Source of the DNA: Octopus vulgaris
Taxonomy: Eukaryota
NCBI GenBank assembly: GCA_951406725.2
Contig: OX597814.1
Span: forward strand, 33,728,001 to 33,792,000
DNA: 64,000 bases
Reading direction: 5' to 3'
In this document: positions 2,586 to 38,179 of the stretch, one piece after another
How positions within the stretch are numbered: position 1 is the stretch's first letter
Layout of the letters: the number at the start of each line of letters is the position of its first letter
Translations under genes and position numbers: made by a program
The notes under the pieces: model-generated
What the model was told of the DNA's origin: nothing
The model's database searches: none
Seen by the model: only the letters and a program-made list of their open reading frames with translations

Positions 2586-3480
2586 CTGTAAATCCTTGAG
2601 TATAGTCCGCCCTTAAGTATAATACACAGGGAATTTTTAGGGGGCTGTACCTCTGAAAAACCTAAACCTTGTGTATAATACGCACCCCTTCTCTAACTTG
2701 AGTCAAGGAGGTCCATATAACGTCCTTGGTTTGTAAAAATGTATACGGTAACATCCTTTATTATTATCTTTATATATAAAAGTGAGGGTTGTGTGCTGTC
2801 TGTCTCCTACGATTTAGATTCCTAACTACTCCCACATTTTGCGGTGCAGTTTAACCAAAACCAGGTATCTTATAGTCGTGATTCATATTGAGCCCTTCTG
2901 GGTATTAGCGCATCTACGATGAGTCTACGATTTAAAAAAAATTTACCATCATTTTTTTCCATTTTTAATGCATTTTTTTGCTGTTATATAAGGGAAGTAA
3001 CTCTCTAAAAATGTATTATTAAATCTCAGAACGTAAAAAAACAGTAACACCCCCATTTGTGGTTAGCCATATTGAGATGGCTATTATACTACATAACTCT
3101 CTAAAAATGCTTATATAGTTATTTCCCTTACAAACCCGAGCAACGCCAGGCGATACTGCTAGTTGTATATATAACAATATTGCAAACGTGTAGCATTTCT
3201 GTGCATTTTGTTTGCAGAAAATAAAGAAATAACAGTAACAACTATTAATAAATGTTGCTTACTGCAAGTTATGGATGATTCTTTTATGACTTTATTGCTT
3301 CCAGGCTTATCTTAGGGTATTTTCGTGCCCGACATCAGAAAATGCGTCTGAATAAACATTGCCAGACAGCAAACAGAGAATTGAACATTGCTTAGAAAAT
3401 AATTTTCATTTTTAACACAGTAAAGATTTTGATCTTCAAATTTTGGGAAAAAAATGCGGATTATACTCGAGGATTTATGG
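2586..3480. mobile_element. Tc1/mariner-superfamily (pogo/Tigger-like) MITE containing a Helitron insertion
   Basis: TA-flanked imperfect TIRs CTGTAAATCCTTGAGTATAGTCCGC / GCGGATTATACTCGAGGATTTATGG. Confidence 0.65.
2767..3162 (+). mobile_element. Non-autonomous Helitron
   Basis: 5' A|TC start, 3' hairpin CCCGAGCAACGCCAGG then CTAG|T, no TSD. Four copies in the window. Confidence 0.8.
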
Positions 3481-29933: not shown

Positions 29934-30995
29934 TGGGTTCTCATTCCTAAGGTATTTGTCGCCGTCGTCATTATTGTTGTTGTTGTTCAGGTCACTGCCT
30001 GGAATCGAACTCGAAATCTTGGGGTTAGTGGCCCGCGCGTAGAGCGTTAGTGACACGAGCATATGGCGTAGTGGCAATTATGGAGTGGATTTTAGGGCTT
30101 ATAAATCTAATATTTTCCTATTCTTCCTTAATACCGGTTCCCATATGCTATTCATATCTGCACTTGGCCTGCTTAGGAGGTTGTTGTGTCCTAGCATATG
30201 TGCTGGTTATTTTAGTTTTCGTATTTTCCAGTGGTGTTCGCAGTCTATTATTTTACCTTCATCCCACAGGGGGAGGTGGTCTCCATTTTCCCATACATGA
30301 TCAGCTATACCCGATTTATCAATATCTCCTCTTGTCACAGCTTTGCGATGTTCCTTTACCCTTATTTTGAGAGGGCGGCATGTTTCGTCTTTGTATAACC
30401 TACCACAGCTGCATGGGATGGAGTACACGAAGTTTTTGGTCATATTCTCTTCTATTGGTGGTTTTACTCGAAGGAGATATTTGCGAAGTGTTGTATTACT
30501 CTTGAATACTGTCCTGATGTCATATGAGCCACATATCTTTTGTATCCTTTCGGAGAGGCCTTTCACATAGGGTAGACAGACTGTGGACAGTTTATCGCTT
30601 TCATCCTCTCTTTTCTTCATAATTGGTGAACCCATAGCTAAACCCTCTTCTTGTCGATATATATCAGTGTCCATACTGAAGTAGGTAGTTCCTACACAGA
30701 AGGTCAACGTTTCCATTAAGTTTCTTATTGGTATACTAGTGCGTTCTTTTAGATGGGTGTCTGTCACTACTTTTTCTTGAATCACTGATAGTGTTTCACC
30801 AGTTGGGACTTTGGTGAACAGACTTATCACATCTAGACTCACTATCTGGTTAGATTCAATGGGGGTATCCTTGTTCAGTTCTGTGAAGTGGGTGGAATTC
30901 TTCACGTACGATGTTGACTTCCTTGCTAATGGACTGATTATATCCACAAAGAAGCGGCTTAGTGGGTGACATGCTGAACCTCTACAGCTCATTAT

Positions 30996-31384
30996 GGGAT
31001 GGAAGCACTCCGTCGGTTACGACGATGAGGGTTCCGGTTGATCCGAATCAACGGAACAGCCTGCTCGTGAAATTAACGTGTAAGTGGCTGAGCACTCCAC
31101 AGACACGTGTACCCTTAACGAAGTTCTCGGGGATATTCAGCGTGACACAGAGAGTGACAAGGCCGGCCCTTTGAAATACAGGTACAACAGAAACAGGAAG
31201 TAAGAGTGAGAGAAAGTTGTGGTGAAAGAGTACAGCAGGGATCACCACCATCCCCTGCCGGAGACTCGTGGAGCTTTAGGTGTTTTCGCTCAATAAACAC
31301 TCACAACGCCCGGTCTGGGAATCGAAACCGCGATCCTACGACCGCGAGTCCGCTGCCCTAACCACTGGGCCATTGCGCCTCCAC
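30996..31384 (-). mobile_element. SINE family 2 (tail type b) inserted in the Penelope RT
   Basis: 12-bp TSD ACAGCTCATTAT at 30984-95 and 31385-96. Confidence 0.9.
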
Positions 31385-33024
31385 ACAGCTCATTATAAGC
31401 CTTTATGGAATGCCATCCTTGTGAATCTTAGGGAGACCGTACATGTGTGGTAGTTTAATGTAGTGTTGAGTCAGTTGTTTGTACTTCATTGGTGTAAAGT
31501 GATCCTTGTTCTTGATCTAGATCTGTGACAACTTACTCTCTGTTTTCAGAGTTGGGTCTTTCTTTACTTTGCTGTAGCTATCATCATTAATAAGACTTGC
31601 CAAACAAGATGAGGACAAATATTCGTCAAATGTAAATAATGTACATAATTCCTCATCTCTTAAACATAGAACAGAAACAGTACTGTATTTTTTTATTATT
31701 ATTTTTATAATTCGCATATATTTATCATAAATGCTAAACAACACCACAGAAGAATCGACGTAAGTGATAGGTGAACCGCGATAAGTGAACTGCGATAGGT
31801 GAATCGCGATATGGCGAGGGACTTCTGTAAAGACATTCATGAAATACTGCAATTATCATATTTTTATCTTTTTACCTTTCACTTGTTCAGTCATAAACTG
31901 TGGCCATGCTGGAGCATCGGCTTGAAGAATTTTAGACGACCGAATCGAGCACAATACTTATTTTTTAAAGCCCGATGTTTATTCTATCGGTCTTTTTTGT
32001 CGAACCGCTAAATCATAGGGGACATAAATACACCAACACCGGTTGTCAAGCGGCGAGACACACACACACATGCATACATACATACATACATACATACATA
32101 CATACACGATTGGTATCTTTCGGTTCCGGTCTACCAAATCCACTCACAAGGCTTTGGTCGGACCGACGCTATAATAGAAGACACTTGCCCAAAGTGCTGC
32201 GCAGTGCGACTGAACCCGGAACCATGAAGTTGGGAAGCAAACTTCTTACCACACAGCCACGCTTGCACCTGTATTGAATAAATTTTTTTTAAAAAAGTAA
32301 TCGAGAGTTGTTTCTTAGAACATAGCATATCGCTAGCTCTGATCGAAATCTAGAATGCTACTGGGAAAATTTTTATGTAGTCTCCTCCTAACAAGAGGCT
32401 AGCCTCGAAGTATTCAATAGTTTCTGACACTTTTAGAGTAAATGTGGAGTTTCTTCCTTATCTCTTTTCTGTGGATCGAGAATCGACGACATATTCACTT
32501 CTGCCGGTACTTTACGGACAATCTCGACGTCTGTCGGGTGGATTTGTCATCGACAGAATGTCAAATGTATGGCTCTTCACACGCCTTCTCTACCTCACGT
32601 ACAACCTCAGTTAGGTTGTGCAGATCTGTCATGTCACCATGACCTTCTGTCATTGAATGGCTTGGTGAAAAGCTTAGCTCCTGACCTTTCTCCCAGCATT
32701 TCTCTACACATAATAAGCTGACATCAACCCAGATTGACCCACCACCACCACCATCATCCCAAGTGGCAAAGTTCATTCACTCTCATACTTTTCAGACAGG
32801 CTTCAAGCGATTTTGTATATTGCTACGAATAAATTTACGTTTGTAAATCTGCTTCGCCTAGCCAAACAGCTACTCTGTGTTGACGAAGAGTAATAACCCT
32901 GGAGCAAGTCCACAGATGTTGCTTTGTGCTGGGCGGGAATGTTGGATTCCCGGTTCGAAAATATAAGGACACAGATAATGTGTCTTATAGCCAACTAGAA
33001 ACGATGTTTCTTGTGGCTCATAAA

Positions 33025-37039: not shown

Positions 37040-37478
37040 GGATCTTTTCGGTTTGAACGGCAGTTTTTTCTAGCGGTGTCATATGAAATTGTCACCCATA
37101 ATTATGACCCTAGTATCGATCTATTGCATTTCAATCTGTTATAGGGTTAGGGTTAGTAAGGGTTTGGGTTAGTGTTAGGGGTGGGGGAAGGGTATCTTTT
37201 TTTTCTTCACAAATGTAAATAAACCCAATCTGTTTCTTAAACGAGGGACATATTCATACGGCACAGAATGCTTTTTACCTCAATAGACGTAATTGATTGG
37301 TTGAAATTGCAGAAATTGAAGAAAAAAAGCAACAAATATCTTACAAACTATAGAATTTTCTCAATAAAGCCAAGAGAAAAAGATGTTTTATAAACACATT
37401 CTACCAGTATACGAAATTTAGATTTTCTTAGTTGCCTAGAAATTATGTTAAAAACTGCCGTTCAAACCGAAAAGATCC
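37040..37478. mobile_element. MITE family B, complete (439 bp), carrying TTAGGG-like repeats
   Basis: Perfect ~28-bp TIRs GGATCTTTTCGGTTTGAACGGCAGTTTT and internal AGGGTTAGGGTTAG. A partial copy lies at 59325-59602. Confidence 0.85.
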
Positions 37479-37517
37479 TAAACATGGATTAGAGTAAGGT
37501 ATAGAGGTAATCCGTCG

Positions 37518-37598: not shown

Positions 37599-37628
37599 AG
37601 TAGCTTTTAAGAAAATCTATTTTTATAT

Positions 37629-38051
37629 GGCTTTAGTCCCTTATGTTATCGAGCAGTTACTGTCTATATCCCTTTTAGAGAATTATTATTGCTTTCGAAC
37701 AGATTTTCGAAATCAGCAAATGTATTTTGCTTGAAAATCTATATAAGAAAATCCTGCAGAGTGAGAATTCGTCGAGGAAGCGGAGGCCTACCACACGCCG
37801 ATGATAGGCAATACACCTTGAAACCATGGTCCGTGTGTGGTTTCCGCTTCATCGGGGAATTACCTCCCTTTGCAGGTTTAGGGCACCGTGACGGTGTCGA
37901 GCCTTTCTGGTGACGTCGATGTTCGCCTGGGGCTAAATGCAACAGTAACACCCCCACCACCCTGCCCTGTCCCTAGCCATATTCAGATGGCTTTAGTCCC
38001 TTATGTTATCGAGCAGTTACTGTCTATATCCCTTTTAGAGAATTATTATTG
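37629..38051 (+). mobile_element. Retrozyme-like / non-autonomous PLE-type element: 360-bp unit with 67-bp terminal redundancy and a TSD
   Basis: Identical 67-bp direct repeats at 37627-37693 and 37987-38053. CTATTTTTATAT is duplicated at 37617-28 and 38052-63. Internal hammerhead motif; no meaningful ORF. Confidence 0.75.
37792..37837 (+). ncRNA. Type I hammerhead ribozyme motif (CCGAUGA core variant)
   Basis: Stem I CACACG/CGTGTG; CCGATGA 37798-804; stem II T-AGG..CCT-T; GAAA 37820-23; palindromic ACCATGGT stem III; GTC 37829-31. Confidence 0.7.
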
Positions 38052-38179
38052 CTATTTTTATATTGAAAATGAAGAAAAGGGAAAAAGAGAAAAATATTTT
38101 TTTTTAATACCGACATAAAGTCCTCCTGCAAACTTATACGCATACATTTAAGTACACACGCGCGTCTACATCTACAATC

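Follow-up and report, generated by a model that had tools for sequence, protein, structure and literature searches.

The window analysed here, a stretch of 64,000 nucleotides from Octopus vulgaris, carries a non-coding 360-nt repeat with a hammerhead motif. We read it, with a probability of about 0.7, as a young non-LTR retrozyme that is inserted in trans by the RT-endonuclease of a Penelope-type element (PLE). That PLE machinery stands behind the insertions is very probable; a Penelope-type RT was named as the mover in an earlier note on this DNA, and two-site ends, tails, inversions and (TA)n targets make it likely. The element is a new non-LTR retrozyme family of a known class and not a new kind of system.

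The window copy is inserted in an AT-rich, non-repetitive target and its target-site duplication is therefore readable. Its parts are listed below, with unit positions (u) counted from window position 37629 (u1).

37617..37628, + strand: left target-site duplication, 12 bp, CTATTTTTATAT; its last 2 nt also match u359-360
37629..37988, + strand: full 360-nt unit (u1-u360), 47% GC, 100% identical with at least 25 other genomic units
37989..38051, + strand: start of the next unit (u1-u63), stopping at the long 3′ site (u61-65)
38008..38053, + strand: tail of about 45 nt, from the short 3′ site (u19 = 38007) to the long site; its bounds are the putative RT start sites
38052..38063, + strand: right target-site duplication, CTATTTTTATAT; its first 2 nt also match u64-65

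The 360-bp unit, the repeat of its start and the 12-bp duplication were all found as exact repeats where the earlier note had placed them. Between the duplications lies an insert of 423 nt, made up of one 360-nt unit plus 63 nt. The direct repeat of 67 nt with a period of 360 is exact (37627-37693 = 37987-38053), but the redundancy of 67 nt claimed for the element reduces to 63 nt, as 2 nt in either target copy agree with the unit. The copy is long-ended and 5′-truncated at u359/u1. Its 63–67-nt redundancy is the outcome of 5′ truncation of a cDNA that started from the long 3′ site and no property of the element; alone, it is no proof of a circle. Since the copy has a single hammerhead, no monomer can be released from it by double cleavage, and it is likely a dead end.

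The proposal that the sequence is non-coding, multi-copy and present as tandem multimers is borne out, and the single-copy case that would have spoken against it did not arise. Of 744 first-look candidates in a search of the same genome, 40 were scored, and these yielded 215 matches, 150 of them listed at 97–100% identity. First-look candidates number 744, 2489, 4413 and 2290 for the family of the window copy (A) and three sister families (B, C and D), respectively, and are not copy numbers. A 64-nt DNA query came back empty though the sequence is present; queries this short therefore miss real copies, and the counts are to be read as minima. The 48 family A loci examined (40 from the first search and 8 from a second query) are top-scoring matches, biased to full-length young copies, with one end hidden by the fetch edge at 2 loci. 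Most are 98–100% identical, and 36 of the 48 contain at least two full units in exact head-to-tail register, with a maximum of 14 full units in one arm. No ORF was found inside the unit or running on from it in family A loci and families B-D. An 880-aa frame that starts in the L032 copy was rejected as a chance read-through into a LINE-like ORF.

The 3′ ends of family A copies are fixed. Out of 79, 43 are located at u15-21 (short), 33 at u61-65 (long) and 3 elsewhere, so that two canonical sites about 45 nt apart cover 76/79 ends. Circularly permuted ends had been expected; instead, only the 5′ ends scatter. A haplotype with G at u20 still has AT at the terminal u20-21, and the short end is therefore u19, with AT coming from the target. 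Head-to-head inversions in which both outer ends are 3′ ends were seen at 31/48 loci. A long end is paired with a short one in 28 of 29 inversions with two canonical ends (binomial p 1.1e-7), the sole exception being L039, a 41-nt piece; complete inversions among the 8 later loci follow the same rule (5/5). (TA)4 or more adjoins 68/76 canonical ends, compared to 2.2% of random window positions. The earlier note was silent on inversions, the two-site rule and (TA)n targeting, all of which are present here.

The 5′ ends are spread over the unit (52 at inversion junctions and 14 outer). Just one of the 66 is within 2 nt of the predicted hammerhead cut, about 0.9 being expected, which agrees with the claim that ends are away from the cleavage site. 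Junction 5′ ends cluster at a hairpin base, u73-80 (37701-37708), in 7/52 cases, and the 8-nt palindrome or complementary arms of this hairpin are used at two junctions (L043 and L060). Microhomology of at least 4 nt was present at 7/26 inversion junctions (1.6% expected), 11/26 being blunt or sharing 1 nt; it is suggestive only, and BLAST end extension may inflate some of the cases.

The pattern is that of PLE insertions. These are 5′-truncated partial tandems with an inverted copy, a 30–40-bp tail that is often one-ended and a (TA)n bias (PMC8557442), and the same pattern is described in PMC3846280. In experiments with purified PLE protein, AT-rich DNA was nicked and extended on both strands, and RT began at a pair of internal sites marking the limits of the tail, a signature called PLE-unique (PMC11167929). 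The Octopus unit shares with EN+ PLEs (Poseidon PAc, Neptune and Naiad; PMC11167929, PMC8557442, PMC3846280) two RT starts, a tail at one end of inverted insertions, truncated 5′ ends, a preference for AT/(TA)n targets and a palindromic stem III in the hammerhead. Unlike them, it has no ORF, a tail of about 45 nt, a canonical rather than minimal hammerhead and exact-period multimers in both arms. Chlamydomonas MRC1 and other non-autonomous Chlamys elements are likewise PLE derivatives with multicopy head-to-tail insertions; they differ in having 3′ ends similar to those of their autonomous partners, and their clade is described as lacking canonical hammerheads (PMC8557442).

As far as sequence can test it, the element has every feature of a metazoan non-LTR retrozyme. 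Like the coral, mussel and axolotl retrozymes of PMC7229834, it is a non-coding tandem unit (170–400 nt there, 350–390 nt in mussel) with GC below 50%, a canonical type I hammerhead, duplications of more than 4 bp and a self-paired fold, and it has no LTR/PBS/PPT. Cleavage and circles were demonstrated for those retrozymes, whereas in the Octopus element both are predictions; conversely, the map of insertion ends, tail, inversions and (TA)n targets comes from the present analysis, and the word 'inverted' is absent from the main text of PMC7229834. Vertebrate retrozymes, described as non-autonomous PLE derivatives, belong to the same class (bioRxiv 10.64898/2026.07.22.740005). That preprint includes no mollusc, and its main text does not contain 'tail', 'target site' or 'octopus'. 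Its families are linked to PLEs by pLTR homology (in Xenopus, 24/57 match known TEs, mostly PLEs), whereas the Octopus unit is linked by its insertion footprint, pLTR homology not having been found. A PLE link was already proposed there, on co-occurrence and pLTR homology, and in the discussion of PMC7229834.

The mid-unit type I hammerhead claimed earlier was located at 37792-37837, with anatomy and covariation in agreement. Its predicted parts and the other structures of the unit are as follows.

37792..37837, + strand: type I hammerhead, from anatomy and covariation; predicted to cleave
37792-37797 / 37832-37837, + strand: stem I, CACACG/CGTGTG
37798-37804, + strand: core CCGAUGA, with C3-G8 and U4C
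37805-37819, + strand: stem II, 3 bp on a U-U pair
37820-37823, + strand: GAAA
37823-37830, + strand: palindromic stem III, ACCAUGGU
after C37831 (C17), + strand: predicted hammerhead cut
37751..37877, + strand: long imperfect rod (stem I extension) with the hammerhead at its tip, in single-sequence and circular folds
37703..37738, + strand: two-part hairpin of the minimum-energy fold; its lower stem is kept in sister families
37882..37898, + strand: GGCAC/GTGTC hairpin, conserved in four families
37975..37992, + strand: hairpin AGCCAT-ATTCAG-ATGGCT; the short 3′ site follows about 15 nt downstream
37656..37662 / 37943-37949, + strand: GTTACTG/CAGTAAC, predicted long-range helix in the tail region, in four families

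The minimum-energy fold of the plus strand (−120.1 kcal/mol, z −4.41; equally stable shuffles 0/100) contains the extension of stem I into a long imperfect helix and the GATTTTC..GAAAATC hairpin (37703-37738), both of which the earlier note had drawn, as it had the AGCCAT/ATGGCT hairpin. Its GCACCG/CGGTGT hairpin is missing from this fold, but a GGCAC/GTGTC stem appears in the four-family consensus fold. The minus strand folds with z −2.10; a circular fold, a check suggested earlier, gave z −5.2 against 40 shuffles. The GTTACTG/CAGTAAC helix changes from U-A to C-G in family D and is absent from the family A single-sequence fold. The other suggested check, the Rfam hammerhead model, gave no match: at the gathering score there were none in the window, and the 6 and 2 Rfam matches at E<=10 do not include a hammerhead model. 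It is anatomy and covariation, therefore, that support calling this a ribozyme. The U4C change in the core and a stem II with 3 canonical pairs only are oddities of this hammerhead, which is nevertheless quite probably functional. Among family A loci, 192/195 hammerheads are identical to that of the window, and its 46 nt contain 2/53 distinct substitutions (6.8 expected, p 0.027, post hoc). The interval u121-150 (37749-37778) carries 12/53 distinct substitutions, with three alternative bases at u134, and u151-210 has 2.

Families B (353 nt), C (about 355 nt) and D (352 nt) were reached through chance neighbours. They are 61–67% identical to A and 64–83% to each other, and all have tandem and inverted copies. 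The full 350–360-nt unit is colinear over the four families and has therefore evolved as a unit. In an alignment of 12 natural copies from the four families, 93.3% of hammerhead cells remain paired and 21 changes are double-sided, which answers the earlier call for compensatory stem changes. Either value was matched by 0/500 shuffles, and slid controls drop to 29–54%; pairs with a double change number 6, a figure equalled by 44/500 shuffles. As the 12 rows represent four related families, shuffle counts overstate independence and the covariation amounts to a handful of independent events. The clearest of these are the four different stem III palindromes (ACCATGGT, ACTATAGT, ACTGCAGT/ACCGCGGT and ACTCGAGT) and core pair 3-8, which is C-G in A and D, U-A in C and U-G in B. 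U3-A8 is a described variant in PLE hammerheads, and a palindromic helix III is a sign of dimer cleavage (PMC4209133). The 3′ ends were 17 short, 20 long and 5 other in family B, 11, 10 and 8 in family C, and 15, 28 and 2 in family D, 'other' including alignment slips. All four families end at the same two positions, though the short-site sequence differs in D.

The arms run intact across the cleavage site 199 times, and 51/79 arms have at least two passes; the template was therefore either a ligated circle or an uncleaved multimer. A linear hammerhead-cut monomer was rejected as template, as u204 shows no excess of 5′ ends and the site was crossed 199 times. Each of eight different haplotypes is the majority form in whole arrays, and 28/36 arrays are uniform at 8 marker sites; a four-change haplotype occupies every full unit of L373, L374 and L377, including both arms of L373. 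A circle is a template on which RT would pass one monomer again and again. A circular RNA is, on balance, a probable RT template, an estimate that leans on the results for mussel, coral and axolotl (PMC7229834). In the cycle proposed, multi-unit loci would be transcribed, and hammerheads paired through palindromic stem III would cut the RNA into 360-nt monomers, which a host ligase would close, as in the retrozymes of those animals. A PLE protein would bind near u19-u65 and nick both strands of an AT-rich target; one target strand would prime cDNA at u19 and the other at u63-65, with one active site per position. RT would traverse the cleavage site, making up to many laps, and the two cDNAs would join head to head, or one would join alone, as in the window copy. 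In full, this cycle has a ribozyme-made circle as template of a dimeric Penelope-type enzyme that primes both nicked strands, at two positions on the circle set by RNA structure, and performs rolling-circle RT in both directions; we put it forward tentatively, at somewhat less than even odds. The same enzyme could instead use linear uncleaved multimers, with arrays growing and homogenising as DNA. Internal initiation needs no free 3′ end, unprocessed RNA is the main substrate of the anole PLE, for which cleavage is dispensable (PMC11167929), and many vertebrate retrozyme dimers cleave poorly, 8/9 Xenopus dimers being without in vitro cleavage (bioRxiv 10.64898/2026.07.22.740005). A uniform source array would give uniform daughters too, and the mixed arrays (8/36), the repeated variant block of L035 and the mixed units of L062 fit DNA-level expansion or template switching. 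However, a separate homogenising event would be required for each of at least 8 haplotypes, the two arms of L058 and of L062 have no shared rank order of singleton variants (which may postdate insertion), although a single heterogeneous linear template should produce one, and the four-family hammerhead covariation and few hammerhead substitutions suggest that cleavage matters. We regard a cycle without a circle as unlikely. L062 and L063 (C2, about 14 kb apart) are two large inverted arrays of differing haplotypes, and in L062 the same four-change block at u249-259 recurs in three non-adjacent units of both arms.

The unit could also be MITE-like, being the pLTR or an internally deleted form of an unsampled ORF-bearing PLE that shares its sequence and is still alive as its parent. 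A pLTR, too, has fixed ends, a tail and inversions; PLE pLTRs are matched by Xenopus retrozymes (bioRxiv 10.64898/2026.07.22.740005), and the family C core TTGATAA is common to the pLTR hammerhead of a 781-aa PLE. The earlier note had given as its own refutation the case that all copies share the fixed ends of a pLTR belonging to an ORF-bearing PLE; the ends are indeed fixed in PLE fashion, but no ORF is attached. The unit runs into a PLE ORF at 0/48 family A loci, PLE ORFs near A-D copies are set apart from them, mostly by TA tracts, and the unit is colinear across four families, which together make a pLTR origin of this kind very improbable. Spread as a satellite, SINE or Helitron-type repeat without PLE enzymes would account for tandem arrays and for LINE fragments near some copies. 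It is largely refuted by dispersed single insertions with duplications at unique targets (10–15 bp at L033, L034, L053 and the window; unreadable inside TA tracts) and by the pairing of long with short ends. Further, the unit itself carries neither a poly(A) nor a simple-repeat tail, and L035, with 16 full units, contains no tRNA gene, although decayed tRNA heads could escape. LTR/PBS/PPT architecture was not encountered, PBS and PPT not having been sought as motifs.

To collect helper candidates for the retrozyme, six PLE families and Pfam GIY-YIG were searched for at the protein level, and profile scans followed. The genome contains at least four young PLE families with intact ORFs of 775, 776, 781 and 784 aa (L101-L130, L191-L220, L264-L276 and L311-L340); many copies are identical and several occur as inverted pairs. 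The 775-aa protein has RVT_1 and GIY-YIG domains and a CxxxxCxxC motif ahead of the nuclease, as described for the Neptune and Nematis clades, a likeness at the level of the motif. In its family, copies stop on (TA)n at either of two 3′ sites separated by about 37 nt (11 long, 16 short, 1 other and 2 unreadable among 30), and the same spacing and TA targets recur in the 784-aa family. A four-family profile found no pLTR match in 775-, 776-, 781-, 784/785-aa, ~720-aa and Poseidon-like loci, nor in 30 GIY-YIG loci, an incomplete sample that leaves out Naiad-type elements by design; profile matches within sampled PLE loci are separate insertions. The retrozyme tail is about 45 nt, compared to about 37 nt in sampled PLEs and 30–40 nt published. 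The lack of sequence shared with the sampled PLEs and a tail that is about 8 nt longer count against insertion in trans by a PLE. Hammerhead-like pLTR motifs, each with a U3-A8 core and a palindromic stem III, occur in the 784-aa (L313, ACCGGT) and 781-aa (L264, ACATGT) PLEs, 50–60 nt upstream of the PLE short 3′ end; the distance from cut to short end in the retrozyme is about 176 nt. No such motif was recognised in the 775-aa family.

A 2020 review describes animal retrozymes as lacking a conserved motif that reveals the mobilising retrotransposon (PMC7761336). In the literature searched, with repeat databases, subscription papers and supplements outside its scope, we found neither an end-level PLE footprint on retrozymes nor a cephalopod retrozyme family. 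The two-start-site PLE footprint, resolved to the nucleotide in four families, is unusually direct evidence of how this class moves and points to the enzyme likely spreading such animal RNA repeats. The 28/29 rule is also relevant to the way in which PLEs form inverted ends, a question left open by PMC8557442. With young near-identical copies, mapped starts and intact PLE ORFs in one genome, the question of PLE RT acting on a circle becomes bench-testable. If the full cycle is true, the genome harbours a currently active lineage of viroid-like RNA circles of at least four families, the helper recognises RNA shape rather than shared sequence, and each insertion records the haplotype of one circle.

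Part of the unit is present in 20/24 rows of public runs, 0 on record as RNA. In all four runs examined, none recorded as RNA, a closed 390-nt contig (360 + 30) spans the unit, its joint going back 360 in two of the four. Because tandem DNA yields the same contig, it is no evidence of a circle or of expression, and this includes X16, a large run of unspecified kind. Contigs differ from the unit at 7 places in X14 (organism B) and 3 in X16 (organism D), none in conserved core bases. Contigs of runs X1 and X5 partly match window 37900-38060 and then diverge, a hint of families nearer A, and an unrelated repeat at window 37400-37490 has very high contig depth in 3/4 public runs.

The window holds other pieces related to these elements. 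A PLE fragment at 30210-31016 (− strand), which we take to be Poseidon-like, has RT and GIY-YIG-like parts matching two separate stretches elsewhere and is probably internally deleted; it belongs to an older family, most of the matches listed being 76–88% identical. An old, diverged superfamily fragment is present at 32874-33024 (+ strand), and a family C-like piece at 3040-3090 (+ strand) ends close to the short site.
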